Source of the DNA: a virus
DNA: 32,537 nt
Virus genome (UHGV): UHGV-0139594
Strand: one strand, 5' to 3'
Shown here: one piece after another, positions 13,351 through 30,685 of the stretch
How the letters are laid out: the number at the start of each line of letters is the position of its first letter
How positions within the stretch are numbered: position 1 is the stretch's first letter
Notes under the pieces: generated by a model
The model's database searches: none
Seen by the model: only the letters and a program-made list of their open reading frames with translations
Told to the model about the DNA's origin: nothing
Program-made: the position numbers and the translations under genes

Positions 13351-13353
13351 TTT

Positions 13354-13830: not shown

Positions 13831-14206
13831 GCTGGTTATCGCTGCATTCTTCTTTACTGTCATCGGTTCTTTCATCTGGTCTGCCAACCACTACTACAGC
13901 AAATATCAGCACGAAAAGAAACGTGCTGATGAGGCTGTACAAAATGTTGAATCTGCAACAGCCATTACCCGTAACGTCCTGCAATCACTGCAAATCGTCA
14001 ATACAGTTATAGAGGTTAACCAGCATGCAAAACAGCAGATCGCACTGGAGTCACAGAGAACCCAGGAAGATATCAAAGTGGCTGTTGCGGATGATGATTG
14101 TGCTTCACGTCCTGTGCCTGCTGCCGCTGCTGACCGGTTGCGGAAATTCGCGAACGGTTTACGTGAGCGCTCCGGTGGCACCACTGCCAGCCAGCCTGAC
14201 TTCTGA
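13814..14206 (+). CDS. Rz: Rz-like i-spanin
   Basis: N-terminal transmembrane helix (LVIAAFFFTVIGSFIW), coiled-coil body, position after endolysin. Confidence 0.7.
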   Translation: MKLSYKLVIAAFFFTVIGSFIWSANHYYSKYQHEKKRADEAVQNVESATAITRNVLQSLQIVNTVIEVNQHAKQQIALESQRTQEDIKVAVADDDCASRPVPAAAADRLRKFANGLRERSGGTTASQPDF

Positions 14207-14348
14207 TACTCCTGTACCGTTTATACCCAATCCGCTGACGTATGGTGCCAGCCTGGAGCTGAATGTGAGTCTGTTGTCTGCACTGGCTAACTGCAATCGG
14301 GATAAAGCTGATATTCGTAAAATAGATGCAGAGAGAACTAACCATTAA
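14091..14348 (+). CDS. Rz1: Rz1-like o-spanin lipoprotein, overlapping Rz in +1 frame
   Basis: Signal peptide with lipobox MMIVLHVLCLLPLLTGC; Pro-rich mature part; begins inside Rz and extends past its stop. Confidence 0.65.
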   Translation: MMIVLHVLCLLPLLTGCGNSRTVYVSAPVAPLPASLTSDTPVPFIPNPLTYGASLELNVSLLSALANCNRDKADIRKIDAERTNH

Positions 14349-14369
14349 GCAATAAAATTGTCAAATTGA

Positions 14370-14996
14370 TCAGTTGTCAAATGAATATACGTTAAAGGTA
14401 TATGTCGACATAATTTCACCAAGTACCTCAATACATATACTTTTTTTATGAAAATTACTGGGAAATGAACTTAGCTCTTCAAGGTATTGCACATAAGTGC
14501 TGATATCACTTGCATCACGTTCAAGGAATTTCACTTGGCCAAAAGAAGGAGTATTAATCCTGGTTCTTTGCTGGATTATATGGATAAAATGTGTAGTTGG
14601 TGAAACTATTACTCTTGAAATATCGGAAATGATGTCTTCTTGAACTTGCCGATAAAGTAAATCCTTTGGGTAATGGTGTTTTATCTCGATGGTTGCAACA
14701 TTGCCATTATGTTCAGACGTTAATATCGACTGGTTATAAAGTGATATGTCAACAGCGCCGATACCGAGTTTTGGATGCTCACTTAAAGCAGTTAGTGTGC
14801 TGATTTGATTGAGTATAACAACTAACTCATCACGTATTTGTGTTTCATGTTTGCGATTGTAGAAGTAGCCATTCAGTTCATTTAACTTTTTATGCATCCT
14901 ATCGTGACTAATTGCTTCGATCAGTAAATCCTGAATCATACTTTTCTCTAGGTAATCCGAACGGTTGTAAGTGACAGTATTGTGCTGGCATGTCAT
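14370..14996 (-). CDS. Moron cassette gene B: hypothetical 208-aa protein with a possible PD-(D/E)xK-like motif
   Basis: AT-rich ORF on the opposite strand in the bor position. Segment GIGAVDISLY ... VATIEIKHH loosely fits D...(D/E)xK spacing; speculative. Confidence 0.55.
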   Translation of the reverse strand: MTCQHNTVTYNRSDYLEKSMIQDLLIEAISHDRMHKKLNELNGYFYNRKHETQIRDELVVILNQISTLTALSEHPKLGIGAVDISLYNQSILTSEHNGNVATIEIKHHYPKDLLYRQVQEDIISDISRVIVSPTTHFIHIIQQRTRINTPSFGQVKFLERDASDISTYVQYLEELSSFPSNFHKKSICIEVLGEIMSTYTFNVYSFDN

Positions 14997-15039
14997 TAAT
15001 ATGTAAAGGTATTGTGAATGCCAGAAAGATAACGAAGTA

Positions 15040-15375
15040 TCATCGATAGAAAAACTTTACAGCCCACTCGTAAACAGCTTTGTAAATCGGTTCATGGTAA
15101 ATACTATCGATACTATTCAGATGTGCGATCATCGCCTCCACAGTTGTAGTGGTTGTTTCTAATATTTCGATTATTGCAGGGCGGTCATCATCTTCATCGA
15201 AGTATTCGAACAGCAGTACAGGTTTACCATGCCATTCAGCATCAGAGACTCTAAGGTTACAACTACCGCTCAACTCAAAGTGAATTTTGTAATTACCTTC
15301 TACAGAATGGCCTACGGGGAAAAAGTATAGGGTGTCATCTTTGTTCAAAAGCCATTCCCATTCATAACTATTCAT
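15040..15375 (-). CDS. Moron cassette gene A: hypothetical acidic 111-aa protein
   Basis: AT-rich ORF upstream of gene B on the same strand, 43-bp gap. AGGAG RBS before the second ATG (MNSYEWEWLL). Confidence 0.55.
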   Translation of the reverse strand: MNSYEWEWLLNKDDTLYFFPVGHSVEGNYKIHFELSGSCNLRVSDAEWHGKPVLLFEYFDEDDDRPAIIEILETTTTTVEAMIAHLNSIDSIYHEPIYKAVYEWAVKFFYR

Positions 15376-15525
15376 TTGTGAACTCCTGTTCATTGAGTTT
15401 CAACAACTATCAACTACATCCAGCGAAGCATAAAAGATCGTTTATGGCAAAACCGGAATGGAGTGCGATTCGATTCTGAGAAGGATGCCACGTATCGTAC
15501 GCGAACCATCCAAGAGGATTATGCA

Positions 15526-15876
15526 ATGCCCCTACGAACCCCAAAAGCCTGCCGTGTTCGCGGCTGCCGCCATACCACTACTGACCCGTCAGGCTACTGC
15601 GAAAGCCACAAAAGCGAAGGCTGGAAGCAATACAAACCTGGACAATCCCGTCATCAGCGCGGCTACGGTTCGAAGTGGGACAGTATCCGCGCGCGTGTTC
15701 TGAAGCGTGACAAAGGTCTGTGTCAGTTATGTCTGCGTGCTGGTGTGGTGCGTGAGGCGAAAACTGTTGACCACATCATCCCTAAAGCGCATGGCGGCAC
15801 TGATGCTGACAGTAATCTGCAGAGTCTGTGCTGGCCGTGTCATAAGGCGAAGACGGCCCGTGAACGGTTAAAGTGA
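15526..15876 (+). CDS. HNH endonuclease (terminase-associated)
   Basis: CxxC ... DHIIPKAHGGTDADSNLQSLCWPCH HNH motif; directly upstream of the small terminase as in HK97-like cos phages. Confidence 0.8.
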   Translation: MPLRTPKACRVRGCRHTTTDPSGYCESHKSEGWKQYKPGQSRHQRGYGSKWDSIRARVLKRDKGLCQLCLRAGVVREAKTVDHIIPKAHGGTDADSNLQSLCWPCHKAKTARERLK

Positions 15877-15885
15877 TAATAATTC

Positions 15886-15962
15886 TCAACTGTCTGAGGG
15901 GAGGGGCGGGTCAAATCCCTGCAGCCTGACGTCTTCCGGACTGCCCGCCCCATCGTTTTTTT
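15886..15962. other. GC-rich inverted repeat plus T-tract between HNH and terS; terminator and/or cos-region candidate
   Basis: GGGGCGGG (about 15903..15910) pairs with CCCGCCCC (about 15944..15951), followed by TTTTTTT. Confidence 0.3.
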
Positions 15963-16001
15963 ATACCCGCGAAAAATGAAATTTAACCAGGAGTGCCGCA
16001 T

Positions 16002-16496
16002 ATGGCTGGAACGGCGGGGCGTTCCGGGCGTCGCCCCAAGCCAACGGCGCGCAAGGCGCTGGCCGGAAACCCCGGCAAGCGAGCCCTGAACAAAGATGAA
16101 CCTGTTTTTACGCCCATCAAAGGTGTTGAGCCACCGGAGTGGTTCGCAGAAGAAAATCTCCCTCTCGCCACGATCATGTGGCAACTGACAACCAAAGAAC
16201 TCTGCGGTCAGGGCCTGCTGTGCGTGACTGACCTCGCGGTGCTTGAGCGGTGGTGCGTAGCCTATGAGTTCTGGCGACGTGCCGTGAAAAATATTGCCAG
16301 CCAGGGCAACACCATCACCGGTGCAATGGGCGGTATGGTCAAAAATCCGGAGCTGACCGCCAAGAAAGAACAGGAGTCCGAGATGAGCAGCACGGGGGCA
16401 ATGCTCGGACTCGACCCCAGCAGCCGCCAGCGTCTGATTGGCCTGGCGGGGCAGAAGAAAGCCACTAACCCGTTTCTGAAAATTATCGAATCATGA
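16002..16496 (+). CDS. Terminase small subunit (P27-family-like)
   Basis: AGGAG RBS before ATG 16002; basic N-terminus [14 protein letters not shown] typical of P27-type TerS; precedes the large terminase. Confidence 0.75.
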
Positions 16497-17344
16497 GCCG
16501 GAAATCTTACCCCAACGTAAATGCAGCCAATCAGTATGCCCGTCATGTCGTGCGCGGAAAGATTGTGGCCTGCCAGTTTGTGATTCAGGCCTGCCAGCGC
16601 CATCTTGATGACCTGATGGCGGAAAAAAGTAAGTCGTTTCGTTACCGCTTCGACAAGGACCTGGCTGAACGGGCCGCGAAATTTATTCAGCTGTTGCCGC
16701 ACACCAAGGGTGAGTGGGCATTCAAACGGATGCCCATCACGCTGGAGCCGTGGCAGCTATTTGTGATCTGCTGTGCGTTTGGCTGGGTCAATAAAGGCAC
16801 CCGGTTGCGCCGCTTCCGGGAGGTGTATACCGAAATCCCCCGTAAGAACGGCAAATCAGCAATCTCTGCCGGTGTTGCCCTGTATTGTTTTGCCTGTGAT
16901 AACGAGTTTGGCGCGGAAGTGTATTCCGGTGCCACGACAGAGAAACAGGCGTGGGAAGTCTTTCGCCCGGCGCGACTGATGTGTAAACGCACACCCATGC
17001 TGACGGAAGCGTTCGGGATTGAGGTTAACGCCTCAAACATGAACCGTCCGGAGGATGGCGCGCGGTTTGAACCGCTGATCGGTAACCCCGGTGATGGTTC
17101 ATCACCCCACTGTGCGGTGGTGGATGAATATCACGAGCACGCCACCGATGCGCTTTATACCACGATGCTTACCGGGATGGGGGCGCGACGTCAGCCACTG
17201 ATGTGGGCCATCACCACCGCCGGGTACAACATTGAGGGGCCGTGCTACGACAAGCGGCGGGAAGTTATCGAGATGCTCAACGGTTCGGTAACCCTGCGCA
17301 CATTATCGGTTATGGATCGGTGTTTGACTGTCGTTCTGAGCTGA
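16493..17344 (+). pseudogene. Terminase large subunit, truncated after the ATPase domain
   Basis: Walker B-like AVVDEYHEH and ITTAG motif present, but ORF is only 283 aa. Its last ~36 codons are an out-of-frame read of the prohead protease gene. No nuclease domain and no portal gene follow. Confidence 0.65.
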
Positions 17345-17832
17345 TATTTGGTTCATTCCGCGAAATCATCCGGCCCGGCGCTTTTGACGATGTGCTTGGT
17401 GATGATGTACGCGCACTGTTTAACCACGATCCTAATTTTATTCTTGGGCGTAGTGCAGCAGGCACGCTGAATCTTTCAGTTGATGAGCGCGGATTGCGCT
17501 ATGACATCCAGGCTCCGGAGACACAGACCATTCGTGATCTGGTGCTGGCCCCGATGCAACGTGGAGATATTAACCAGTCATCTTTTGCTTTCCGTGTCGC
17601 CCGTGACGGCGAGGAGTGGTATCAGGATGAGGACGGGGTTGTTATTCGCGAGATAACCCGCTTTTCCCGTCTGCTGGATGTCAGTCCTGTGACATATCCT
17701 GCCTATCAGGAGGCTGACTCGGCTGTTCGCTCCATGAAAGCATGGCAGGAGGCGCGCAACAGCGGCGCGCTACAGAAAGCCATTAATCAACGTATGGCGC
17801 GTGAGCGCGTCCTGACCCTTCTTAACGCGTAA
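17242..17832 (+). CDS. Prohead protease, HK97 family
   Basis: [10 protein letters not shown]...[12 protein letters not shown]...ALFNHD...[21 protein letters not shown] matches HK97 gp4-type protease motifs. Frame opens only at 17236, so start (GTG 17242) is uncertain. Confidence 0.75.
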
Positions 17833-17842
17833 AGGAAACATC

Positions 17843-19072
17843 ATGAAACTGCATGAACTGAAACAGAAACGTAATACTATCGCAACTGACATGCGTGCCC
17901 TGAATGAAAAAATTGGTGATAACGCATGGACGGAAGAGCAGCGCACTGAGTGGAACAAAGCAAAATCCGAACTGGAAGCGCTTGATGAACGAATTGCACG
18001 CGAAGAAGAACTGCGTCGTCAGGATCAGGCGTACATTGAAAGCAATGAGGAAGAGCAGCGTCAGAATCTTGATCCGGAAAACAATCCGCAACAGGATGAG
18101 AAACGAGCTCAGGTTTTTGATAAGTGGATGCGTCACGGTGCCAGTGAGCTGACATCAGAAGAACGAAAGGCGTTGCGTGAACTTCGTGCCCAGGGCGTAG
18201 CTCAGGATGAAAAGGGCGGATATACCGTACCAGAAACATTCCTGGCGAAAGTTGTTGAGAAGATGAAATCCTACGGTGGCATCGCCAGTGTGGCGCAGAT
18301 TCTTACCACTTCAGACGGTCGCACTATGGAGTGGGCAACAGCTGATGGTACTTCCGAAGTTGGTGTTCTGCTGGGCGAAAATGAAGAAGCCGGTGAAGAA
18401 GACACCGATTTCGGTATGGGAAGCCTTGGGGCGCTCAAAATGACATCGAAAATAATTCGTGTGTCTAATGAGTTGCTGCAGGACAGTGCGATCGATATGG
18501 AAGCTTATCTTGCCCGTCGCATTGCTGAACGTATTGGTCGTGGTGAAGCCCGTTATCTGATTCAGGGGACGGGGGCTGGTACGCCTAAACAACCCAAAGG
18601 GCTGGCAGCATCAGTGACCGGCACAACACAGACTGCCGCGGCAAATGCGGTGAAGTGGCAGGAAATTCTGGCTCTGAAACACAGCATTGATCCTGCATAT
18701 CGTCGCGGACCGAAATTCCGCCTGGCGTTTAACGATAATACGCTGAAACTGATCAGTGAGATGGAAGACGGTCAGGGACGCCCTTTATGGTTGCCGGATA
18801 TTGTTGGTGTGGCACCTGCTTCAGTGTTGAATGTACCGTATGTCATTGATCAGGAAATTGATGATATCGGGGCGGGTAAAAAATTCATGTTCTGTGGTGA
18901 CTTTGATCGCTTCATTATCCGTCGTGTGCGATACATGATTCTTAAACGTCTGGTTGAGCGTTACGCGGAATATGATCAGACCGGTTTTCTGGCCTTCCAT
19001 CGTTTTGACTGTATCCTGGAAGACACCTCTGCCATTAAAGCGCTGGTGGGGAAAGGTAGCGTTGGTGGTTGA
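17843..19072 (+). CDS. Major capsid protein, HK97 fold, with N-terminal coiled-coil delta (scaffold) domain
   Basis: 409 aa; N-terminal ~120 aa charged coiled coil; follows protease. Confidence 0.85.
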   Translation: MKLHELKQKRNTIATDMRALNEKIGDNAWTEEQRTEWNKAKSELEALDERIAREEELRRQDQAYIESNEEEQRQNLDPENNPQQDEKRAQVFDKWMRHGASELTSEERKALRELRAQGVAQDEKGGYTVPETFLAKVVEKMKSYGGIASVAQILTTSDGRTMEWATADGTSEVGVLLGENEEAGEEDTDFGMGSLGALKMTSKIIRVSNELLQDSAIDMEAYLARRIAERIGRGEARYLIQGTGAGTPKQPKGLAASVTGTTQTAAANAVKWQEILALKHSIDPAYRRGPKFRLAFNDNTLKLISEMEDGQGRPLWLPDIVGVAPASVLNVPYVIDQEIDDIGAGKKFMFCGDFDRFIIRRVRYMILKRLVERYAEYDQTGFLAFHRFDCILEDTSAIKALVGKGSVGG

Positions 19073-19150
19073 TTAGTCTTTTTACGTAATACAGCACGCC
19101 GCGTAATGCGGTTTTTTTGTGCCCGCGTTCTGGCGGGCACAGGAGGTTTT

Positions 19151-19474
19151 ATGCTGTTAAAAATGGAAGAGATTAAGCTTCAGCTTCGTCTGGATGATGA
19201 TTTCTCTGATGAAGATGAGTTGCTTGAACTACTTGGGAAGGCCGCTCAGAGTCGGACGGAAAACTTCCTTAACCGTACGTTGTATGCAACCGCAGATGAC
19301 AGGCCTGCGGATGATCCTGATGGGCTTGTGATATCTGATGATGTGAAGCTGGCGCTCCTGCTACTTGTCAGCCATTTCTACGAAAACCGCTCAACGGTTA
19401 CAGACGTTGAGAAAATGGAGTTGCCAATGAGCTTTAACTGGTTGGTTGCTCCTTATCGCCTTATACCACTATGA
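19151..19474 (+). CDS. Head-tail connector protein (gp6-like)
   Basis: AGGAGG RBS; MLLKMEEIKLQLRLDDDFSDEDELLELLGKAAQ matches the gp6-like head-tail connector signature. Confidence 0.75.
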   Translation: MLLKMEEIKLQLRLDDDFSDEDELLELLGKAAQSRTENFLNRTLYATADDRPADDPDGLVISDDVKLALLLLVSHFYENRSTVTDVEKMELPMSFNWLVAPYRLIPL

Positions 19475-19881
19475 AAATTCGTCAGGCGCAGACCAGCGCA
19501 ACCTACATTCTGCCTGACCCAGGCGAGCTGAATAAACGCGTCCTGATCCGCCAGCGGGTGGATATGCCCGTGGATAACTTTGGCGTGGAGCCTCAATACC
19601 CGGTTGCGTTCCGGGCATGGGCGAAGGTTATCCAGACCAGTGCCACCACCTGGCAGGAAACCGCGCAGATCGGAGATGCCATCACCCATTACATCACCAT
19701 TCGCTACCGCCGGGGGATCACTGCTGATTATGAGGTGGTCTGTGATGACAGTGTGTACCGGGTGAAACGTCAGCGTGATCTGAACGGGGCGCGGCGCTTT
19801 CTGCTGCTGGAGTGTACGGAACTGGGTGCCGAAGAACAAATGGGAGGACGCAGTGGAGCAGACAGCATTTTTACACGTTGA
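19471..19881 (+). CDS. Head-tail adaptor / head closure protein
   Basis: Size and position in the HK97-like head completion module; ATGA overlap with upstream gene. Confidence 0.65.
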   Translation: MKIRQAQTSATYILPDPGELNKRVLIRQRVDMPVDNFGVEPQYPVAFRAWAKVIQTSATTWQETAQIGDAITHYITIRYRRGITADYEVVCDDSVYRVKRQRDLNGARRFLLLECTELGAEEQMGGRSGADSIFTR

Positions 19882-20377
19882 TTTCAAACAACCGGAGGAG
19901 ATGGAGTTTAATCGTGCCAGGCTCCGAAGGGCATTTGTTCAAATCGGGCGTGTCTATATGCGTGATGCCCGGCGGCTGGTGATGCGACGTGGTCGGTCTG
20001 CTCCAGGTGAAAACCCCGGCTATCAGACCGGACGACTTGCGCGTTCTATAGGTTATTACGTCCCCCGTAAAAGCTCCCGTCGTTCTGGCCTGATGGTCAG
20101 AATTTCCCCTAACCAGAAAAACGGGCAGGGTAACCGGCGTTTTCCTGAAGGTTCTGCGTATTATCCGGCGTTTCTGTATTACGGTGTGCGTCATGCCGCA
20201 TACGGGATGAGCAAAAAGGATAAGCGCCAGAAAAAGCAGCATTCATCCCGCTGGCGGCTGGCACCACGTAATAACTTTATGGCTGATGTCATCGACCAGC
20301 GTCGTTACTGGACACAAAAGTTACTGTCCCGTGAGTTACAGCGGTCATTACGTCCTGTAAGAAGGAAAAAAACATGA
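19853..20377 (+). CDS. HK97 gp10-family tail component
   Basis: Position and basic composition. GTG 19853 preceded by GGGAGG; other starts at 19826 or 19901 are possible. Confidence 0.55.
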   Translation: MEQTAFLHVDFKQPEEMEFNRARLRRAFVQIGRVYMRDARRLVMRRGRSAPGENPGYQTGRLARSIGYYVPRKSSRRSGLMVRISPNQKNGQGNRRFPEGSAYYPAFLYYGVRHAAYGMSKKDKRQKKQHSSRWRLAPRNNFMADVIDQRRYWTQKLLSRELQRSLRPVRRKKT

Positions 20378-20934
20378 AACTGACGCCTGTTATTGCTGCG
20401 CTGCGTGCCCGCTGCCCGTATTTTGAAAACCGGGTGGCAGGTGCGGCCCAGTTCAAAAATCTGCCGGAGGTCGGAAAGCTGAAACTCCCGGCGGCATATG
20501 TGGTACCGGGGGATGATTCTCCGGGAGAAAACAAAAGCCAGACCGACTACTGGCAGGAACTGAAAGAGGGCTTCTCCGTGATTGTCATACTGAGTAACGG
20601 GCGTGATGAGCGCGGTCAGTTTGCCTCGTATGATGTGGTGGACGATGTCCGGCAGATGCTCTTTAAGGCCCTGCTGGGCTGGAACCCGGAAGCGTGCGGT
20701 AACCCGATTACCTATGACGGCGGCACGCTGCTGGATCTGAATCGTCATGAGCTGATTTATCAGTTCGATTTTTCGGTCATCAGCGAGCTGACCGAAGACG
20801 ATACCCGCCAGCAGGATGAGCTGAACAGTCTGGATGAACTGCGAACGCTGGCGATTGATGTTGATTATCTCGATCCCGGTAACGGGCCTGACGGCGATAT
20901 CGAACATCACACCGAAATACCCCTTCCTTCCTGA
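20374..20934 (+). CDS. Putative tail completion/terminator protein (found upstream of Mu-like sheath genes)
   Basis: ATGA overlap with upstream gene; position upstream of the sheath. Confidence 0.55.
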   Translation: MKLTPVIAALRARCPYFENRVAGAAQFKNLPEVGKLKLPAAYVVPGDDSPGENKSQTDYWQELKEGFSVIVILSNGRDERGQFASYDVVDDVRQMLFKALLGWNPEACGNPITYDGGTLLDLNRHELIYQFDFSVISELTEDDTRQQDELNSLDELRTLAIDVDYLDPGNGPDGDIEHHTEIPLPS

Positions 20935-20942
20935 GAATCTTC

Positions 20943-21113
20943 ATGTTTGTGAAACCTGTTAAAGGGCGGTCAGTGCCTGACCCTGCCCGCGGTGACCTTT
21001 TGCCCACCGAAGGGCGAAATGTTGATGAGAACAACTACTGGCTGCGCCGTGAAGCAGCGGGTGATATCCGGCGCGTGAATAAAAAGGTGAACACCGATGA
21101 CGATAAGCTTTAA
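20943..21113 (+). CDS. Small conserved protein preceding the tail sheath (DUF2635-like, 56 aa)
   Basis: MFVKPVKGRSVPDPARGDLLPTEGRNVDENNYWLRREAAGDIRRV; below the 60-aa track cutoff; overlaps the sheath start. Confidence 0.6.
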   Translation: MFVKPVKGRSVPDPARGDLLPTEGRNVDENNYWLRREAAGDIRRVNKKVNTDDDKL

Positions 21114-22344
21114 CACCATTCCGTCGAATACGCTGGTTCCGCTGTTTTATGCGGAAATGGATAACTCGGCGGCGAATACTGCACAGGACAGCGGGGCATC
21201 GTTGCTGATTGGTCACGCCAATAACGGTGCAGAGATTGTTGCCAACAGTCTGGTGCTGATGCCGTCGGCAGACTATGCACGCCAGATTTGTGGTGCGGGA
21301 AGTCAGCTGGCGCGTATGGTCGAGGCTTATCGCCAGACCGATCCGTTTGGCGAGCTGTATGTGATTGCCGTTCCGGAAGCCACAGGCGCGGCGGCAACGG
21401 TTACGCTGACGGTGACCGGAGCAGCAACCGAAACCGGCACGGTGAATGTTTATGTGGGACGTACCCGCGTGCAGGCACCGGTGACCAACGGCGATAACGT
21501 CACGACGATTGCCAGCAGTATCCAGGATGCCATCAATGCCGTTCCGGCCCTGCCGTTTACGGCCTCATCTTCGGCAGGCGTGGTCACGCTGACCGCGCGT
21601 CATAAGGGGCTTTGCGGGAATGAAATTCCTGTCAGCCTCAATTACTACGGCTTTGGTGGGGGCGAAGTGCTGCCAGCGGGCGTACAGATTGCCGTGGCGA
21701 CGGGGAGCGCCGGAACGGGCGCTCCGGTTCTCACCGGTGCGGTGGCTGCAATGGCGGATGAGCCGTTTGATTATATTGGCTTGCCGTTCAACGACACGGC
21801 CTCCGTTAACACGCTGGTGACCGAGATGAACGATACCAGCGGTCGCTGGAGCTATGCGCGTCAGCTGTATGGTCATGTGTATACGGCAAAGATCGGCACG
21901 CTGTCAGAACTGGTGACCGCAGGTGACCAGTTTAACCAGCAGCACATTACCCTGGCGGGATACGAAAAAGACACTCAGACGCCAGCCGACGAGCTGGCGG
22001 CAAGCCGTACCGCCCGCGCAGCGGTGTTTATTCGCAACGATCCGGCACGTCCCACGCAGACCGGTGAGCTGGTGGGTATGCTGCCTGCACCGAAGGGGAA
22101 ACGGTTCACGATGACCGAGCAACAGACCCTGCTGTCTCATGGCGTGGCAACGGCGTATGTCGAAAGTGGGGTAAACGCTCTACGTGGCATACACAACGAT
22201 TTACAAGAGCTAAACGAAAGGCTTTACCGTGGTTTTAGCCTGACCGTCGAGGAAGTCGAGATCACCTTGTCCGGCATATTCAGATTCAACTTTCAGGCCC
22301 AGCAGCGCGGTAATCAGATCCACTTCAACACGGTTTGCGTGTGA
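21097..22344 (+). CDS. Contractile tail sheath protein (Mu gpL-like), probably 3'-truncated
   Basis: MTISFNTIPSNTLVPLFYAEMDNS ... GSQLARM ... VTLTARHKGLCGNEIPVSLNYYG match Mu-like sheath signatures. Protein is 415 aa against an expected ~490, and the sheath-like sequence seems to stop near 22150. Confidence 0.7.
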   Translation: MTISFNTIPSNTLVPLFYAEMDNSAANTAQDSGASLLIGHANNGAEIVANSLVLMPSADYARQICGAGSQLARMVEAYRQTDPFGELYVIAVPEATGAAATVTLTVTGAATETGTVNVYVGRTRVQAPVTNGDNVTTIASSIQDAINAVPALPFTASSSAGVVTLTARHKGLCGNEIPVSLNYYGFGGGEVLPAGVQIAVATGSAGTGAPVLTGAVAAMADEPFDYIGLPFNDTASVNTLVTEMNDTSGRWSYARQLYGHVYTAKIGTLSELVTAGDQFNQQHITLAGYEKDTQTPADELAASRTARAAVFIRNDPARPTQTGELVGMLPAPKGKRFTMTEQQTLLSHGVATAYVESGVNALRGIHNDLQELNERLYRGFSLTVEEVEITLSGIFRFNFQAQQRGNQIHFNTVCV

Positions 22345-22716
22345 ACGGTAATGAGCCTCAGAGAAATCATTAACCGCTACCAGCATAGCATCAGAACGGT
22401 TTGGATATTGGCGGCTGTATTGTTCCAGGTCACGAGAAGTAACAGCGTTAATACTGCCGACGTGTTTCATCTGGAAAAGTTTGTTTGACCATTCCTGACG
22501 TTTAGAGGCGTTCCAGTCGCTTTGAGCGTAAGGCGAGGTTTCCCCAGCTACCTGCACAAACTGATCAATCAGGTCGGTAAGAAGAATGCTGTTTTCTGTA
22601 TGATATTGCACATCGAACAGATCGAGATTAGTAATCAGGGTATTAAGTGCATTCTCATAAGCAAAAGGAGTTACTACCGCAGTATTAACGCCAAAATATG
22701 TTGATAAATCATTCAT
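22210..22716 (-). CDS. Hypothetical protein (168 aa), last gene of a minus-strand operon
   Basis: ORF in a 3-gene minus-strand cluster; its 3' end overlaps the sheath ORF tail. No confident homology. Confidence 0.45.
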   Translation of the reverse strand: MNDLSTYFGVNTAVVTPFAYENALNTLITNLDLFDVQYHTENSILLTDLIDQFVQVAGETSPYAQSDWNASKRQEWSNKLFQMKHVGSINAVTSRDLEQYSRQYPNRSDAMLVAVNDFSEAHYRSHANRVEVDLITALLGLKVESEYAGQGDLDFLDGQAKTTVKPFV

Positions 22717-22730
22717 TATTATTTTCCTTG

Positions 22731-23114
22731 TTAAGTCGTAGGGATCGCAAGTTCTTCATAACTAGCAATTACAAAGCCGAGAGATTGCAGTTTTGCAATA
22801 ACACTTGCCTTTTCCATGCTGTTAAATTCAATCCCATCTTCAGCCAGAATAACGAAAGTAGGATGTGCAACCACTACGCTTTCCTGTCCTTCATAAGCCG
22901 GTTCAACTACTACGTGAGCAATATCAGATGCGGTTGTTGCTTTGGTGCCATCGGCTTTCAGCAAAGCCCCGACAATAAGATCGTCAGTGAGAGGTGAAGC
23001 CAGTTTGACGAGGCGATCTTGCAGCACCGGATCAGCAGCGTAAGCTACTACCTTACAGCGTGAACGGGAGTTATCCGCATTCACTACTTTTAATTTTCCA
23101 TATGGGTTAGCCAT
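22731..23114 (-). CDS. Hypothetical protein (127 aa)
   Basis: ORF in the same operon. Weak resemblance to head-decoration-type proteins (ADGTKATTASDIAHVVVE), not reliable. Confidence 0.45.
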   Translation of the reverse strand: MANPYGKLKVVNADNSRSRCKVVAYAADPVLQDRLVKLASPLTDDLIVGALLKADGTKATTASDIAHVVVEPAYEGQESVVVAHPTFVILAEDGIEFNSMEKASVIAKLQSLGFVIASYEELAIPTT

Positions 23115-23118
23115 AAGA

Positions 23119-23316
23119 TTATTTTCCTTTCAGTTGTTTAATTTTAGATTTAAGGGCATCAGCAAGACTAACCGCATCAGCCGATTTAAATAATTGAGCA
23201 GTGGTAGAACGAAGACTTTCGGGAGTAACTCCCAACAGTGCGGCAACCTTAATGAGGTTTTCATCACTAACAATCATCGTTTCCCCGTCTTTGCTGATAA
23301 TCATTTCTTGTTTCAT
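23119..23316 (-). CDS. Hypothetical small protein (65 aa)
   Basis: Start taken at the internal ATG (MKQEMIISKDG) with an AGGAA-type RBS; first gene of the cluster. Confidence 0.4.
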   Translation of the reverse strand: MKQEMIISKDGETMIVSDENLIKVAALLGVTPESLRSTTAQLFKSADAVSLADALKSKIKQLKGK

Positions 23317-24300
23317 AAATAACGTTCCTGTTAGTGCCAGACAAATAAAAAGCCCCAATGCCGTAAGAGGTTAATTCTGACCAGCAAAGGGGCTTTAACG
23401 TGCGGGCAATTACATAATTGATAAGTTAAACTATAAGAGGATTAAACATATCAGCAAATACACTTTTTAAATATACTTGATGATATGCTTAAAGGGTGAA
23501 TAGATACTCCTGAAAACATGCTCTTAGGAAAACATGCGGAATCAATCAGGAATATCTATTCGGGGCGCGGTGGCCAACCGCTATCTTTCATGGTGTGGAT
23601 GCACCAGTCAGATTTTAAGGAATCACTATTCCAATCTACTCACAGATTAAATTTTTAATAATGATTAACTACACCAACAGTAATCTACCGTTTCAGAAAA
23701 TCGTTTTTACAACCAAAGCTTATAGATCCGCATTCTATAAAACCCGTTTTGCTATCAATATTTCCAAAGTTTATTGCACCATTCTTAGCTAAACTCTCTC
23801 TGCTTGCGGCTAACGCTATGCAGATGATTGTTTTTGACAACAACTTAATAGATTGTTCTGTTACTAACTTCTGTCATTAAATAATAGTTTAATGATGTTA
23901 GTAAATAGTTATAAAATATAACTATCAGTGTAAGGCTCTTTAATATTTTCTGACAAAATAAGGAGCTTTAGGATAAGCATAGATGAAAAATAAGAGCGGG
24001 AAGGGCAAGGAGATAACACCTACCCGCTTTTATCAAAATTAAGCACAATGCCTAACAACATTCATCAACACAACGTAGAAACAATCAACAATCAAAGAGG
24101 GAGTTATGATTATTCTAAAACTTCTTGAGAGATGGAAGGTAATATTTGTTAGAGGTTAATGCCACTCAACCTTTGAGGCTATCACCTTCCATATGCAGGG
24201 ATTTATGACAGTAGAAGGATTAACACCAGTCAAAACCTTTTTATCTACCCCTAATATCATTATATAATGAAATCGTTATAAATGCAAATGATTTTCATTA

Positions 24301-24609
24301 TCATTTAGAGAAAATAGCACTTTTTGCTAAATCGTCTACTAATTGCTGAATCTCTTCACTTGCAGCCTTTAACGTGCTGGCGGTGTCTGTGATGGTTTGA
24401 GTGCACATCTTGGCATCGTCCTCAATTAGCTCTAAATCGCTCACCAGAGAGATAAAATCGTCAAGGCTTACATTCACCTTCATTAAGCTAATAACGCATT
24501 GAGAGAGCGTGTAATCGCATAAATCTGAATAGGCTTGATTTATTCTTGTTTGTAGTGAGATAGTCAGATCTAAAAGTTGTTCCATTGCATTGCTAATATC
24601 TTCTTCCAT
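24301..24609 (-). CDS. Hypothetical acidic protein (102 aa)
   Basis: AAGGAG RBS; start overlaps upstream stop (TAATG); AT-rich. Confidence 0.5.
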   Translation of the reverse strand: MEEDISNAMEQLLDLTISLQTRINQAYSDLCDYTLSQCVISLMKVNVSLDDFISLVSDLELIEDDAKMCTQTITDTASTLKAASEEIQQLVDDLAKSAIFSK

Positions 24610-24854
24610 TATGCGGCTTCTCCTTGTAATGCATCATTAATCATATTCAATACGATGTTAAAAGGTGTCTTGAGCGTCAGCACTTCATCACGATAACGCT
24701 CTAATGCTTCGTAGTCTTCTGTTTCTTTTGCCAGTCGGATTAACTCAGCATAGTTTTTTGCATCAGACAGGATCATCTGAAATAATTGTGTTTCTTGAAT
24801 ATAGCCAATCATTATTTTTCCTTTTTCGAATATTTTCATTGGGCGCTTATACAT
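24609..24854 (-). CDS. Hypothetical protein (81 aa or shorter)
   Basis: Coupled to downstream gene; alternative start at internal Met with AAAGGA RBS. Confidence 0.45.
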   Translation of the reverse strand: MYKRPMKIFEKGKIMIGYIQETQLFQMILSDAKNYAELIRLAKETEDYEALERYRDEVLTLKTPFNIVLNMINDALQGEAA

Positions 24855-24869
24855 ACACCCATCATTTTA

Positions 24870-25253
24870 TTAGTTAGAACGTTTGTTAGAAGCTAATGTA
24901 TCTTCTAAATGAGCCATCAGATCGACTTCCGATGCACCACCTACACAATTATTGAAAGCGTTAAATCCCAAAAAATGATGATAGGAGCTAAACCCTAAAA
25001 GTTGCCAACGCTTCAGAGTGCCATCAGAAATTATTGTTTGTTTTCTTGTTCTTGGGCGAAAGTAAACGCCTGGCATTGACTGGATTATTTCTAATTCTTT
25101 ATTACTTAATTCAGGGGATTCTATTTCAAGAATAAATATTATCTCTTCCCCTGGAATTTCATTATTGGTATGTGTCGGTGGACGTTGTCTTTTTGAATTG
25201 AAATTACTGTTTTTTTCAATACGTTTTAAGTTATTCTTTTTCTTTCTTCCCAT
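24870..25253 (-). CDS. Hypothetical protein with basic N-terminus (127 aa)
   Basis: AAGAGGG RBS; N-terminal Lys/Arg-rich segment MGRKKKNNLKRIEKN. Confidence 0.5.
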   Translation of the reverse strand: MGRKKKNNLKRIEKNSNFNSKRQRPPTHTNNEIPGEEIIFILEIESPELSNKELEIIQSMPGVYFRPRTRKQTIISDGTLKRWQLLGFSSYHHFLGFNAFNNCVGGASEVDLMAHLEDTLASNKRSN

Positions 25254-25627
25254 TTTCCCTCTTTTTATGTGGATTATAAAAACTTAATGCCATTGTTACG
25301 ATGAATATCGCCATAAATGCATTTGCCATATGTATTGCCCGATCTGTTGTTATTGATTGTTTGTGAGAAACAATTCAAAATCTTTGTTTAATTTCAAAAG
25401 ACGAAATGTAGTGCTGTTAATCCCTTCATAATCCAGCACACCGAACGATGTAAAATGATTTAACCAACAATTTCTGATAGTGCGCTGTAGCCGCCTAAAC
25501 TACAAAAGCTAACCACTGTCGGTGGTGAAAACTCTATTTCCAAAATAGCTTTTAAAATGTTGTATCCGCTTTCAGTTATTTCAATAGTTTTGTTTCCTAT
25601 AGTGATGTTATAAGTCATTTATTCTCC

Positions 25628-26221
25628 TTAGAAGGGTAGTGAATCATATATTGTGCTCTCACTTTTGAGATCAATTATCAAAGAGTCAAAATCATTTTCA
25701 CAAAGATAGATATTCTTTGAATCTAATGCTCGTTTTACAAAATCTTCTGTTTCTTCGTGCGGTGGTTTCTTCTTATCAAGGGAAAGAAGCCAAGTAAAAA
25801 TTTCGGGCCGCTCAGGGAACTCTGGCTCTTGTGTTTCTTCTTCAACGATGATTTCGGAAACATTCAATATTTCATTAGATTCGTCTTCTTTCTCAGAAGG
25901 ATCAGGTAGTGATGATTCTCCTTTTGGAATATCAAGCACTCGATAAAGGTTAGAGCTTCCTGGTCGTGCATCTTTTATAATTAATCCCATTTCGAGCAAT
26001 TTCTTAACCCTTTCTTCTGCTGCTCTTGGTGTTATGCCAAAAACATCGCCTATCTTAGCGTAAGAGGGAAATGCACGATCAAACCCTCTCAGATAGCAGT
26101 AAAGGTTTTTAGCACTATCTGTAAATTTATGCCCGTTTACTTGGCTTATTTTTAGAATCCACATAGGAACTTTTACAAATTGTTCTTCATTAATCATTAA
26201 AAATCTCCTTGATGTAATCAC
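25628..26221 (-). CDS. Rep-like winged-helix protein (putative replication initiator of an iteron replicon)
   Basis: N-terminal wHTH (NLYCYLRGF...SYAKIGDVFGITPRAAEERVKKLLEMGLI) resembling replication-initiator DNA-binding domains; acidic C-terminal half; iteron array about 1.2 kb upstream. Confidence 0.55.
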   Translation of the reverse strand: MITSRRFLMINEEQFVKVPMWILKISQVNGHKFTDSAKNLYCYLRGFDRAFPSYAKIGDVFGITPRAAEERVKKLLEMGLIIKDARPGSSNLYRVLDIPKGESSLPDPSEKEDESNEILNVSEIIVEEETQEPEFPERPEIFTWLLSLDKKKPPHEETEDFVKRALDSKNIYLCENDFDSLIIDLKSESTIYDSLPF

Positions 26222-26250
26222 GCTCTACGGCGCTACTATGGTGATAAAAA

Positions 26251-26421
26251 TCACTTGCTTTTGTTTGAGAGTGTTTCAGCCTCTCTTTTCAACATATCAA
26301 GAATGTAATCTGTAACAGTGATACGTTTACTTCTGGCTTCTTTAAACAACACCTGAAATACTTCATCAGGAATATGAAAGCAAGTGCGTGGTTGTCTTTT
26401 CTTTTCTGTAGTTTCGCTCAT
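26251..26421 (-). CDS. Small ribbon-helix-helix-like protein (56 aa)
   Basis: MSETTEKKRQPRTCFHIPDEVFQVLFKEARSKRITVTDYILDMLKREAETLSNKSK; GGAGAAGGAGAA RBS; below track cutoff. Confidence 0.5.
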   Translation of the reverse strand: MSETTEKKRQPRTCFHIPDEVFQVLFKEARSKRITVTDYILDMLKREAETLSNKSK

Positions 26422-26442
26422 AGTTTTCTCCTTCTCCTGTTA

Positions 26443-26625
26443 TTATTCTTTCTCTGCTTCTGCCTTACGCAGTTCATCAATAATTTTTAGTGCATCGTCA
26501 AAGCATTTTTCACGCTCTGGATAACCTCTACTCCTTGCCATATTACGATTCATTACTATTTGATGTCGTGTTAGCTCACCTTTTTTAAATGCCTCTGCGA
26601 CGTGTTTCGGTGTAAACCATTTCAT
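26443..26625 (-). CDS. Hypothetical small basic protein (60 aa)
   Basis: ORF immediately upstream of the RHH gene on the same strand. Confidence 0.45.
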   Translation of the reverse strand: MKWFTPKHVAEAFKKGELTRHQIVMNRNMARSRGYPEREKCFDDALKIIDELRKAEAEKE

Positions 26626-27454
26626 AAAAACTCCTTATTCAGTTAAAAGAAAAAAAACACCTTGCAAGCCTGACGGCTTCAAAGTGCATTGATTTTGATT
26701 ATTTAGAGAAGAATGTTTTTCTGTCCCTCTAATACCTATTATTACATATAAAGAAACATTTGTCAATACCCTTTTCGCAAAAATACGATCTTTTTCAGCA
26801 GCTTAAAATTTTTCTTAGCAATTCGTGCTCTTATGAGTACTCCTATTCTTCCTTATTCTCTAAAACGCTCTCTGACGAGGTTTTGATAAATACAATACAT
26901 TCCCTTATGTAGAGGCTGTTTAGCTCGCCAGAGGCTTATTTAAGCGGTAGAAACTTATTTAACCTTCAACTACTAAAACCATTCTTTCTTTTTTGTTTGT
27001 TGTTGGTTGTTGTCTGTGTCTATGTGCTAACATCGCTAATGCGTAGCACACAAGGTTATTGCACTCGTCAGAGTATTGCACAATAGATTTTCTCTTAAAT
27101 AGATTGATGATCGTTAGATTGGCGTAAGCCTCATCAATGGAACTATTGAAGCGCACAGCGCATAGACACTAACAACCATTCGCTTACGCTCAGGTTATTG
27201 CACATAGTAGATTACATATTCGTTGTGAGCGGCATTAGCGAACATAGATCTACTAACTAACATCAACAAACAAAAACTATGTGTTATGACAAGCAGTCTA
27301 ACGACTAACACTCTAACTTGTGCAAGGTTCTGGCGAATGCCAATAGATTAAGGGATAGTCGTTAGACTCCCCTAACGGGTATCCCTATAATTATTCTTTA
27401 AAGATAAAGGAATTTATAAAAGATAATTTAATTGTAGTTTGATAGTTGATCTAA

Positions 27455-27600
27455 TAGGTAACAAAATTCTGTAGGGGTGGCTAACAGTTTTCTGTGGGGG
27501 TGTCTAACATAATTCTGTTAGGGTTGGGGTAACAGTTTTCTGTTAGGGTGCATATTTCTTTAAAAGTTAAGGATAACAGAATTCTGTGGGGGTAGCTCAC
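27455..27600. repeat. Iteron array: five copies of a ~23-bp unit (AACAnnnTTCTGTnGGGGTnG)
   Basis: AACAAAATTCTGTAGGGGTGG, AACAGTTTTCTGTGGGGGTG, AACATAATTCTGTTAGGGTTGG, AACAGTTTTCTGTTAGGGTG, AACAGAATTCTGTGGGGGTAG at roughly 23-bp phasing. Confidence 0.7.
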
Positions 27601-28709
27601 AGTGACCTACCGTTACATCCATTTATCACATAACATCTGTGCAATGATCTTCTAAAAGTGTTTCTTGCTACCAAAATTAAACATCTAAAACAGGCTTAAA
27701 TTCAATGTAATTGATGATTAATCCCTGTGTAATTCCTACGTAAAAATTCAATGAAAAGTAGCTTAAAAGTGCAATTCTTACTTTCTTCACTTTTACATCA
27801 CTTTCGCAAAGCCTTGTGTAATGCGGCTACAGCGCACTATCAGAAATTGTTGATTAAAAATCAATCTATTATTTGTCGAACAAGTTTCTTTCACGTGTTG
27901 AAAATTTATGTTTAAATTTGCTTTCAATCTTTAATGTGCAATCACTATCAACATAAAAATAAAAAACCTTCTATTATATTTCATAGCATACAAAAGTCAA
28001 TAGAAGCCCTCTCGTGCTCCTACGTAAAAAATCCACCACTTTTCCCCTGATACATCAACTCAAGGCGTTCCATGTGTTCCTTAGTGCATATTACGATTAT
28101 TATGTTAAATGGATTTTGGCCCATATTTTGACCTGCACCCGCATAAACACTGGTTTCATCGCTTACAGCCCTTGTGAGACGTGGTGCTGTTTCTAGCATC
28201 TGATCCGACATAAAACCGATCATTCTCGTGTTTAGTGAAAGTTTAGTGAGAGACATTACAGAAAGGCTTTCTGTGTAATGATTTAATAGGTAAAAACGAT
28301 GTTGATTACGCAAGAAAATTCCTTGCTGATATTTGGGGATTCTGGATTTTCCAGATCGGGGGGCGGTGAAAATCGCGTTAAGCACTTCTCGCAATCTAGC
28401 CATAAGGGAAGGGATAAAGGTATTTAGATGTATTTATAGCTATTTATGGCTATTTATTTTTTATTTACCTTAATTTAAAAATAGCCTTATAAATCAATAA
28501 GATACAGGACTATCTGTTTATATTTTAATCAATTAAATCAAGTTTAATACCCTTAAACCACCTGAAAATAACCTTAAATACCCCAATAATTAATTTTAAC
28601 GATTCCTGTGCTCTCTCCTACTTTGCAAAAAGGCAAAAAAAGCCCATAGAGGCACAAAAATATTAAAACCAATAACTCAATAATGCCTCTACAAGAGCTT
28701 CTCTAACTG

Positions 28710-29261
28710 TTATTTTTGATTGAGCTTACATCGATCCCATTGTTCTGTCGTTCTTGTGATACGATCGCTTATTGCAAAATTTAATAGCCAAGAATCATAA
28801 GCATAAACCTTGCTTTTATCATCTGCCATCATAAACTTGCCGTTAGCATTCAGTTTTGGCGATATCAAATATGTTCCATTTAATCTGTTAGCCTTGAAGC
28901 TATCTGCATATAAAGTTACTTGTGCGTATCCCTGAACACGTAATGCCCCTAAACGTCCGTTTTCGATTGATGCAATAGAGTATTGGCAAAGATAATTTTT
29001 GGCAGCAGGAGTCGTTTTCACTCCTTCAGTTTTTCGTGAATTATTTGATTGCGAGCTTCGAATAGAGGATGAAGGATAAGAGTATGAATGATTTTTATAA
29101 GATGAAGGGGCATAAGAGCCAATCCGGCACGTCTTACCAACAGCTATACACGAGTTACCACAAGGTATTCCTTTTTTGCAGTTTTTAGCAACTGCGGTAG
29201 AAGTTCCCCCTACAAACAACGTTGTAAAAATCATCATCCTCACAAATGCAGACCTGCGCAT
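28710..29261 (-). CDS. Secreted Cys-rich protein of unknown function (183 aa)
   Basis: N-terminal signal peptide (MMIFTTLFVGGTSTAVA), Cys cluster CKKGIPCGNSCIAVGKTC, Ser-rich linker, ~100-aa C-terminal domain; AT-rich. Confidence 0.55.
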   Translation of the reverse strand: MRRSAFVRMMIFTTLFVGGTSTAVAKNCKKGIPCGNSCIAVGKTCRIGSYAPSSYKNHSYSYPSSSIRSSQSNNSRKTEGVKTTPAAKNYLCQYSIASIENGRLGALRVQGYAQVTLYADSFKANRLNGTYLISPKLNANGKFMMADDKSKVYAYDSWLLNFAISDRITRTTEQWDRCKLNQK

Positions 29262-29655
29262 ATAACCTCCCTTTTTAGATTATTCTTATGCTATACACTT
29301 GCTTAAAAAAATAAAAGTGCCCTCTAACCTTTATCGTTCTCCATCACAATTTGAGAAGTAAGAGCAGCAACCTCAAGCGATGATCACGTTTGCGCCGATT
29401 TCAGAGAAAAAGACAGTAACTGAACTCACTATGAAGGCTAAACGTATCTTTACACTTGATGAAAACGTTCAAAAAACAACCTAACCCCAAAATTCAACAA
29501 ATAACAACATATTGTTTTTAAAAGAAAATTAAATCTACATCAAATATTGGTTGACGTAGATTGAGGTGAATAGTAGACTATTAGGGTAAATTGCCATTCT
29601 TGCAACATCATTTAATGCATGTTCTAATCCTCCTATCCCAAAACCGGAGGAAGTT

Positions 29656-29814
29656 ATGCATTTACTTTCAAAACATCTTCACACTATTCACTTTCTCGTT
29701 ATTGATGTATTCATTGTGGCTATTAGTTACCGCATTTGCATCGCTTCCAGTGAAGAGATGGACGCTGTTGCAATTATTGCTCAAGCAATGGCGATGTTAA
29801 CTAAACGACTTTAA
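29656..29814 (+). CDS. Hypothetical small hydrophobic protein (52 aa)
   Basis: GGAGG RBS 5 nt before ATG; converges on a hairpin shared with the next small gene. Confidence 0.35.
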   Translation: MHLLSKHLHTIHFLVIDVFIVAISYRICIASSEEMDAVAIIAQAMAMLTKRL

Positions 29815-29880
29815 TAATTTCACTATCAGGCGCATAAACACATCTTTGATCGCTGGATGTGTTATGCGCCTACTGGTGAT

Positions 29881-30639: not shown

Positions 30640-30685
30640 TGGTGCCGATAATAGGAGTCGAACCTACGACCTTCGCATTACGAAT
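30640..30685 (-). repeat. Inverted 46-bp copy of the thrW 3' end (anticodon loop to CCA): att core remnant
   Basis: TGGTGCCGATAATAGGAGTCGAACCTACGACCTTCGCATTACGAAT is the exact reverse complement of tRNA positions 31..76 (window 109..154). Confidence 0.85.

Follow-up and report, generated by a model that had tools for sequence, protein, structure and literature searches.

An interrupted tail sheath gene in an SfV-like prophage as the probable scar of an inversion between two elements integrated at thrW in Escherichia coli

The virus genome UHGV-0139594 raises the question of why a tail sheath gene should stop two-thirds of the way along and run into DNA of a different kind. The window, by which we mean the whole stretch of DNA that was analysed (32,537 nt), is an entire contig from a short-read metagenome assembly of ~10x coverage (ENA ERZ1744290 NODE_413_length_32537). 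Its plus-strand ORF 21097–22344 encodes 415 aa and is sheath-like in codons 1–359 only. Either side of this point lie DNA segments whose identity, and whose orientation relative to each other, bear on how the joint was made.

The left side of the window is an SfV-like prophage in thrW. Phages of the SfV family integrate at this tRNA gene and carry int and cargo genes at opposite ends (PMC3306764, PMC3851460). The window copy has the same arrangement: the att core is the 3' end of the tRNA gene, with the integrase adjacent to it at attL, and the cargo end, consisting of the AraC gene and an IS fragment, lies by an att core at what was attR (30639–32409), being 99% identical to the corresponding end of the E. 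coli STEC799 prophage, although inverted. Positions 1–11598 are collinear with the complete thrW prophage of STEC799 at 99.2% identity, and the head genes and the 5' part of the sheath follow the same gene order as in that prophage (Table 1). Across the group as a whole (SfV, SfIV, SfI, SfII and E. coli thrW prophages such as that of STEC799), DNA identity is 96–99% over int, the early, lysis and head regions and the 5' part of the sheath. In contrast to the group, the window copy carries an AraC regulator as cargo instead of gtrABC, its distal end is inverted, and the contig is without the nuclease half of terL, the portal, the C-terminal domain of the sheath and all tail genes.

Some of these losses lie well upstream of the sheath. 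Relative to STEC799, 2,358 bp are missing that comprise the nuclease half of terL, a small ORF, the portal and the start of the protease, and the residual TerL, 283 aa with the ATPase domain only, is joined to a 5'-truncated protease gene. An HK97-type head module (terS, terL, portal, S78 protease, PF05065 capsid) is recognisable but incomplete: terS, the shortened protease and the capsid are present, terL has its ATPase domain alone, and the portal is deleted. Nor does the window hold an intact inducible prophage, with full packaging, head and tail genes between direct att sites. Given the break in the sheath and the terL-portal deletion, the prophage cannot make virions.

Table 1. Features of the window (a prime marks a truncated gene; J1 and J2 are the two joints described in the text).
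Feature	Position	Strand	Basis and remarks
tRNA-Thr(CGT) thrW	79–154	+	ARAGORN; the 3' 47 nt (109–155) are the att core, here the prophage attL
SfV-like prophage integrase, reading toward thrW	169–1332	-	98.7% DNA identity to the SfIV int region; 99% to the STEC799 thrW prophage
Early, regulatory, Q-antiterminator and lysis regions, small cargo genes	1333–15525		Comparison with the STEC799 prophage
HNH endonuclease (15526–15876), terS (16002–16496), terL' (16493–17344, ATPase domain only)	15526–17294	+	
Internal deletion junction terL'/protease'	17289–17294		Parental terL ...TTCGGTA/CCC, protease ...GACGATA/ACCC
protease' (17320–17832), major capsid protein (17843–19072), head-tail connector, head closure, Neck1	17320–21113	+	
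Tail terminator (20374–20934), DUF2635 (20943–21113)	within 17320–21113	+	
Native part of tail sheath	21097–22173	+	Codons 1–359 of 498, PF17482 missing; PHROG, Pfam, BLASTP
Meaningless 3' tail of the 415-aa chimeric ORF	22174–22344	+	Integrase piece out of frame, then gene X antisense
J1, inversion joint	22170–22173		4-bp GGTA common to sheath GGGGTA/CTACGC and island integrase GACGGTA/AACGCT; three-way alignment
57-bp filler	22170–22226	+	100% identical to the interior of the island integrase, from codon 319
Gene X'	22210–22716	-	N-terminal 164 codons (22225–22716) of a 343-aa lambda gpE-type major capsid protein, plus 4 junk codons
J2	22225–22226		2-bp TA; integrase piece GGCTTTA/GGGG to gene X GCGGGTA/CCGTGG
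Rest of thrW island	22717–30638	-	99.7% to BA92; small AT-rich genes, 127-aa gene adjoining X, Rep-O-like HTH protein (25628–26197)
Second 47-nt thrW att core	30639–30685	-	100% identical, inverted relative to thrW; hybrid att of prophage distal end and island
Distal, attR-side cargo end of the SfV-like prophage	30686–32409		98.9–99% to STEC799 (L005 5045–7080), opposite relative orientation
IS/rve_3 fragment	30948–31133		Within the prophage distal end
AraC-family regulator	31175–31918	-	Within the prophage distal end
End of an IS1 copy, end of contig	32410–32537		

Profile, domain, protein and DNA comparisons all place the end of sheath homology at codon 359 of 498 (position 22173). PHROG 165 (tail sheath) aligns residues 1–358 of the chimeric ORF with profile positions 1–360 of 493. 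Among the Pfam domains, PF17481 (the beta-sandwich domain) and PF04984 (the subtilisin-like domain) are present, and the C-terminal domain PF17482 is absent. By BLASTP the ORF is collinear with the intact 498-aa sheath of the STEC799 prophage to residue 359 and has zero similarity to it beyond. At the DNA level the sheath is 96–97% identical to those of phages SfIV, SfI, SfV and SfII, and this identity ends at 22172–22173. The last 56 codons of the ORF are junk read-through that overlaps the converging minus-strand ORF 22210–22716 by 135 bp, and the latter is truncated as well, comprising the N-terminal 164 codons of a 343-aa gene. Composition and orientation change at the same place: G+C content falls from 0.543 (15526–22173) to 0.372 (22227–30638), GC3 from 0.64 in the sheath to 0.34–0.42 in the first genes beyond it, and the coding strand switches from plus to minus. 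None of the tube, tape-measure, baseplate or fibre genes of the prophage was found downstream of the sheath within the window. With two of the three sheath domains, and with no tube, tape-measure or baseplate genes following in the window, the element is a remnant of the SfV/SfIV-type prophages and not a functional member.

All that an earlier note on this DNA had observed at the junction from the letters and their ORFs is borne out by these comparisons, namely that the sheath stops early (pairwise alignment with the full-length STEC799 sheath being collinear to residue 359 only), that the rest of its ORF overlaps a converging gene, that no later tail genes follow, that base composition and gene orientation shift, and that a terL/portal deletion lies upstream. 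The same note called the sheath Mu-like. This is right at the level of the protein family, the sheath being of the Mu gpL type, but wrong for the element, which is a phage of the SfV/SfIV/phiP27 type; no similarity to Mu was reported in the SfIV genome comparison (PMC3851460).

The joint itself is compound. Three-way alignment gave the order sheath, GGTA, 57 bp of an island integrase gene, TA, and the middle of an island capsid gene that we call gene X. At the first joint (J1) the sheath (...GTGGGGTA) is connected through the common GGTA, and the sheath's own sequence at the crossover, GGGGTA/CTACGC, is a GTAC site. The 57-bp piece has its counterparts at 12001–12057 and 10107–10163 of two reference island loci (L003 and L001, respectively). 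At the second joint (J2), the gene X partner is the single GGTACC site of the island. Compared with the native island, 3.9 kb are absent at J2: the 3' end of the integrase, a Dit-like gene, a tape-measure-like gene, a 65-aa gene and the C-terminal half of X. Within the island J2 preserves collinearity, and J1 is the sole non-collinear joint between the two att cores of the window.

The DNA beyond the joint has a natural home in E. coli. Positions 22225–30810 are 99.7% identical to an island (BA92 being among its carriers) that is present in 756 of 5,426 complete E. coli genomes, 83 of which have at least 80% of it. Its native form, as seen in strains BA92, M9682-C1 and 401651, is 13.5 kb long and lies between the att core and yagP'/paoD, with direct copies of the thrW 3' end (47 nt and 20 nt) as its borders. 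In these three strains it has its own tyrosine-type integrase (PF00589/DUF6538), a Dit-like gene (PF21821), a tape-measure-like gene (PHROG 16051) and a gpE-type capsid gene. The last of these is gene X, whose product matches 'major capsid protein E' proteins (PF03864) at 44–49% identity over 95% of its length; this identification was made by sequence, as a single-sequence structure model of the truncated X fragment was unusable (pLDDT 38.5), and a PDB sequence search with the fragment returned nothing significant. Pfam gave no matches for the small genes of the island other than the Rep-O-like HTH protein, itself a weak match, and for the small island and cargo genes PADLOC gave just a weak PDC-S48 match to a BRCT protein. 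Missing from the window copy are the integrase except for 57 bp, the Dit and tape-measure genes, and the C-terminal half of X. The AT-rich DNA downstream of the sheath thus belongs to another phage-like element, itself reduced, that shares its attachment site with SfV-like prophages and is their natural tandem neighbour. We know of no formal family name for this defective lambdoid-type element, and we do not class it with the phage satellites (PICI or P4-like), the marks of which are helper-dependent induction and genes that redirect packaging, such as alpA/pri-rep, terS or determinants of capsid size.

The orientation of the att sites shows how the two elements stand to each other. The window holds two 100%-identical 47-nt thrW att cores in inverted orientation (109–155 on the plus strand and 30685–30639 on the minus strand), whereas in reference genomes the thrW cores are direct repeats, the 47-nt core and the 20-nt remnant flanking the island. 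Successive integrations at one tRNA give direct repeats only, so one core must have been inverted relative to the other, and since the distal end of the prophage is also inverted beyond the island, the event was an inversion and not a simple truncation. The un-rearranged parts can be seen in other strains: the adjacency of island, att and AraC in strains 401651 and 2018-10-2CC, and the layout from thrW and int through to AraC and att in STEC799. From these we infer the ancestral order thrW, prophage (int...sheath...tail...AraC), att, island (...X...integrase), 20-nt att remnant, yagP'/paoD. This tandem layout is pieced together from three strains and was not found in full in any single complete genome; in 401651 the body of the prophage has been lost to ISAs1, and 2018-10-2CC is without most of the island. 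Tandem integration at thrW has been shown experimentally for SfI and SfX, which in S. flexneri 036_1d occupy one thrW with an att core between them (PMC3306764). The same logic applies to the prophage and the island, although here the second element is a 13.5-kb defective island instead of a full phage, and later inversion and partial deletion have altered the tandem.

This arrangement alters the remaining claims of the earlier note. A decayed prophage is indeed fused to DNA of different origin and composition, but that DNA is not unrelated, being a second thrW-integrating island; comparison with related genomes across the breakpoint did locate the break, and it identified the downstream DNA as the usual tandem neighbour at thrW. 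The single abrupt junction proposed there gives way to a 57-bp integrase piece between two microhomology joints, and a plain truncation does not fit the inverted att cores or the inverted prophage end beyond the island.

We consider it highly likely that the locus bears the scar of a genuine rearrangement of the chromosome in an E. coli lineage, namely an inversion involving tandem thrW elements with illegitimate microhomology joining. An SfV/SfIV-type temperate myovirus prophage and, after it, the 13.5-kb phage-like island would have stood in tandem at tRNA-thrW. Breaks in the DNA would then have occurred in the sheath after codon 359 (at GTA/C) and in gene X (at the single GGTACC of the island), and the segment between them would have been re-joined in inverted orientation by illegitimate, microhomology-mediated joining. 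Most simply, the 57 bp would be filler copied during repair from the integrase gene 3.9 kb away; alternatively, the inversion may have run into the integrase gene and been followed by a separate 3.9-kb deletion. The joining took place at microhomologies of 4 and 2 bp and at no site of a site-specific recombinase; the junctions resemble neither the att core nor the Pin sites nor the cos region.

Taken further, that alternative for the 57 bp becomes a history of two ordinary successive events, an inversion between the sheath and the island integrase (J1) and a later, unrelated 3.9-kb deletion between the integrase remnant and X (J2). J1 would by itself explain the inversion, J2 is collinear in the island and resembles a plain deletion with TA microhomology, and independent internal deletions are common in the SfV-like phage family. 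However, this history needs two independent breaks just 57 bp apart, and both outer partners, the sheath and X, are GTA/C while neither end of the 57 bp is, a pattern that is better fitted by cut ends bridged by copied filler. On balance we regard two separate events as possible but rather doubtful. The predicted fusions of the integrase 5' part to the sheath 3' part also weigh against them, albeit weakly, as all eight such products, with alleles and start codons guessed, were absent in an exact look-up.

Other searches for the reciprocal junction gave similar results. Three predicted products of GGTACC ligation between antisense X and sheath (alleles and start codons again guessed) were absent in an exact look-up. 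A homology search of truncated or chimeric island integrases yielded only P0004, a plain partial, and among short proteins with a sheath C-terminus all were unrelated fusions or contig-end partials. One candidate of another kind, a 359-aa partial sheath that ends at the breakpoint residue (P0269), is a different allele; as other partials end at 340–407, we judged it a coincidence of contig breakage.

A simple truncation, in which a deletion took the 3' end of the sheath together with every tail gene and brought the prophage up against unrelated flanking sequence, would agree with the want of later tail genes in the window and with the change in composition and orientation at the joint. Yet a deletion preserves orientation, whereas here the att cores, the island and the distal end of the prophage are inverted with respect to the prophage body, and the downstream DNA is the natural tandem neighbour; we find this explanation very improbable.

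Equally, the joint might have been made in the computer or the library, as a chimeric metagenome contig of two E. coli strains or loci, and the short reads, the ~10x coverage and the absence of the junction from any isolate or complete genome would be in keeping with this. Against it, the junction is 100% identical in two further contigs, ERZ1744294 NODE_507 and Logan SRR1818227_11617, which match the window at 100% over 12.8 and 7.8 kb, respectively, including both joints and the terL deletion. The three assemblies come from two assemblers (ENA, SPAdes-style, and Logan) and separate read sets, although the ENA and Logan samples may be related, so that their hosts are not necessarily independent. 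Because the junction is base-identical in all three, an assembly artefact is unlikely, and because the joints share merely 4 and 2 bp, so is a k-mer misjoin, which in a de Bruijn graph is not possible on so short an overlap. We therefore give an artefact hardly any credence. The junction was found in none of the 5,426 complete E. coli genomes, and its exact 87-nt sequence had no match in GTDB contigs (one genome per species); it thus marks a lineage so far seen in metagenomes only.

An error by a site-specific recombinase (a Pin-type invertase, or either integrase, acting on quasi-sites) would account for an inversion, all the more as related prophages encode pinE and the crossover dinucleotide TA is palindromic and allows either orientation, but the Pin sites of the reference prophage (TTCTCCCAAACC-AA-GGTTT) have a central AA and are unlike the junction sites, as are the att core and the cos region, and we think such an error extremely unlikely. 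Two specific candidates were rejected: Pin invertase quasi-sites, on account of the central AA of the natural sites (ACC-AA-GGT), and cleavage of the cos/terminase-HNH type, on sequence.

The inversion has consequences for what the contig can tell. Tail genes missing here may persist elsewhere in the same genome, past the IS1 copy at the contig end; if the inversion model is right, the DNA beyond IS1 would hold the inverted tail genes and the reciprocal joint. As the two att sites are now inverted, Int/Xis would be expected to flip the segment between them and not to excise it, leaving the prophage trapped.

As a case of prophage decay the finding is ordinary, an instance of a well-known kind. 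E. coli K-12 itself carries the defective SfV-like remnants e14 and CPS-53/KpLE1, with fused or truncated structural genes that reflect decay by internal deletion. These are simple deletion derivatives, whereas the window records an inversion between neighbouring elements. Double-strand breaks in E. coli can be repaired by microhomology-mediated (alternative) end joining, at times with templated filler insertions, and the joints of the window resemble its products in having microhomologies of 2–4 bp, much DNA lost on one side only, and a short filler whose template lies close by. We know of no description, as a property of alternative end joining, of a strong preference for TA together with GTA/C or GGTACC at one partner.

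Such a preference is apparent when the joints are set beside others in the SfV-like family, in which analogous chimeric ORFs occur (terS::sheath, RusA::sheath, Rep::sheath and Neck1::sheath). We counted 11 independent junction events: the three joints of the window, the fusions at a second position in the sheath ('sheath site 2'; L013, L015 and six more, counted as one event), one each in L016 and L017, two in L018, and three inferred from reference DNA. TA lies within the exact microhomology in eight of the 11, and in eight of the eight for which there is real DNA (P ~6e-8 against random pairs matched for microhomology length). In four of the 11 the crossover falls exactly at GTA/C in one partner (null ~0.35% per event; P = 3–8e-8), and among these sites are those of all three window joints (sheath GGGGTA/CTAC, gene X GGGTA/CCG and terL CGGTA/CCC). 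On the other hand, the joints in L016, L017 and the second deletion of L018 are without GTAC. Breakpoints thus coincide above chance with a short recognition sequence of restriction type, J2 lying on a full GGTACC.

The GGTACC sites themselves recur. Of the eight in the reference prophage, one is the terL breakpoint and another is 'sheath site 2' (ACGGTACCCGCT). At least eight different fusions share this last site as their invariant right-hand end, with left partners at distances of 1 to 20 kb. The gene X site is the exact reverse complement of the 'sheath site 2' 12-mer, and the integrase partner at J1 matches that 12-mer at 10 of 12 positions. When complete genomes were tested for matches ending at GGTACC, the region was intact in 1,079 of 1,116 records.

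Junctions in which one end is pinned to the nucleotide at a short palindrome, the other end varies, and the two meet at TA or GTA suggest double-strand breaks at a specific sequence, after which one side was resected and the ends were joined by microhomology. We therefore put forward, tentatively and from junction sequences, that the three junctions of the window and many deletions in SfV-like prophages could be repair scars of breaks at GTAC (often GGTACC) made by a putative nuclease that leaves TA ends. Either the host or a mobile element might supply such an enzyme, which could be of restriction type; one end would stay exactly as cut, the other would be resected by up to ~20 kb, and the two would be joined at TA or GTA microhomology, sometimes with templated filler. 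Neither BstEII-type GGTNACC, IS1 ends, RusA (which cuts 5' of CC), the gyrase consensus nor Chi matches all of the sites. As for precedent, GTAC-specific enzymes exist in the PabI family, the GTAC glycosylases occurring mainly in Epsilonproteobacteria (PMC4615327).

In annotating such a contig, both ORFs at the joint (the 415-aa 'sheath' and the converging one of 168 aa) are best treated as pseudogene fragments, and the absence of tail genes from the contig is no proof of their absence from the genome. More generally, a contig that gives the impression of a prophage joined to foreign DNA can record an inversion in which the two elements have one tRNA attachment site in common. If the proposed cleavage at GTAC is real, prophage decay would stem in part from the activity of a specific nuclease and not from random illegitimate recombination, and cleavage at specific sites would repeatedly inactivate and rearrange the prophages of E. 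coli, in a way that junction sequences alone make recognisable.

A single short site in the tail sheath gene recurs as a breakpoint among relatives of this prophage. The site, ACGGTACCCGCT, located at sheath codon ~414 in the reference prophage at thrW of strain STEC799 (locus L005), serves as the fixed right-hand breakpoint for at least eight distinct chimeric proteins, with left-hand partners that lie anywhere between the sheath N-terminus and replication genes ~20 kb away. The site at J2, where the integrase piece in the window joins gene X (the island's lambda gpE-type capsid gene), is the exact reverse complement of this sheath site. Matches to ACGGTACCCGCT with two or fewer mismatches were over-represented both in the window (seven vs. 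1.2 expected, a number reached in none of 100 shuffles) and in the STEC799 locus (10 vs. 2.5 expected). Two ACGGTACCCGCT-like copies in the window form a closely spaced inverted pair, each containing GGTACC. Coordinates of these and the other features are collected in the table.

Features of the window and of related loci (window coordinates unless a locus is named)
Feature	Location	Strand	Remarks
Sheath breakpoint site ACGGTACCCGCT	L005 18964-18975		sheath codon ~414; contains GGTACC
Chimeric proteins broken at this site	L005 18964-18975		P0224, P0226, P0227, P0231, P0233, P0234, P0235, P0237
ACGGTACCCGCT-like inverted pair	2974-2985; 3001-3012	+; -	early-left region; 15 bp between copies
Illegitimate junctions of SfV-like prophages, window	17289-17294; 22170-22173; 22225-22226
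Illegitimate junctions of SfV-like prophages, other loci	L013 ~6235; L015 ~3551; L016 ~1706; L017 ~1801; L018 ~1946 and ~2580
AT-rich island DNA	22227-30685		native copy, L003 10885-24417
36-nt inverted repeat	25459-25494; 27823-27858		97%
183-aa hypothetical gene of island	28710-29261		directly past 36-nt repeat
306-aa BRCT-domain protein	4090-5010	+	adjoins prophage repressor region
IS1 copy at contig end	32410-32537		inserted in prophage distal cargo region
Identical 47-nt att cores, inverted	109-155; 30639-30685	+; -	30.5 kb apart

Independent illegitimate junctions of SfV-like prophages also have a common crossover point, TA. Exact microhomology containing TA, frequently as GGTA, was found in eight of 11 junction events (all eight of those for which real DNA was available), and GTA/C, with the slash marking the point of exchange, was the exact crossover in one partner in four of the 11. 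Measured against random microhomology pairs, the TA and GTA/C biases each have a P of about 1e-7.

Partial sheaths are also annotated in E. coli draft genomes, one of which (P0269; NCBI MCT9990391.1 and three others), 359 aa long, ends at the exact residue at which the sheath in the window is broken. We judge this agreement to be coincidental, as P0269 is a different allele, with nine substitutions, and the end points of other partial sheaths range from 340 to 407.

The AT-rich DNA beyond the sheath belongs to a thrW element of 13.5 kb that occurs in 756 of the 5,426 complete E. coli genomes. The element encodes an integrase, Dit-like and tape-measure-like proteins, the lambda gpE-type capsid protein and a Rep-O-like HTH protein, with no recognizable terminase or portal among its genes, and could be either a defective prophage or a satellite. 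Within it, the 36-nt inverted repeat brackets ~2.3 kb that include the Rep-like gene, while at the position of the adjacent 183-aa hypothetical gene strain 401651 carries, on the opposite strand, a 183-aa serine 'recombinase family protein'; this segment may be invertible or exchangeable. Two other junction-bearing contigs (ERZ1744294 NODE_507 and Logan SRR1818227_11617) share an end point at window position 23868-23869, within an AT-rich gap where the island has few genes, and may point to strain heterogeneity or to a repeat there.

On the prophage side, the BRCT-domain protein weakly matched the candidate defence family PDC-S48 in PADLOC (E = 2.7e-7), and the terminal IS1 lies at a point equivalent to L005 ~7080, directly ahead of the GIY-YIG nuclease gene of intact relatives. 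The prophage integrase gene is intact in the window and, given the inverted orientation of the two att cores, Int-mediated recombination between them would be predicted to flip the entire segment instead of excising it.
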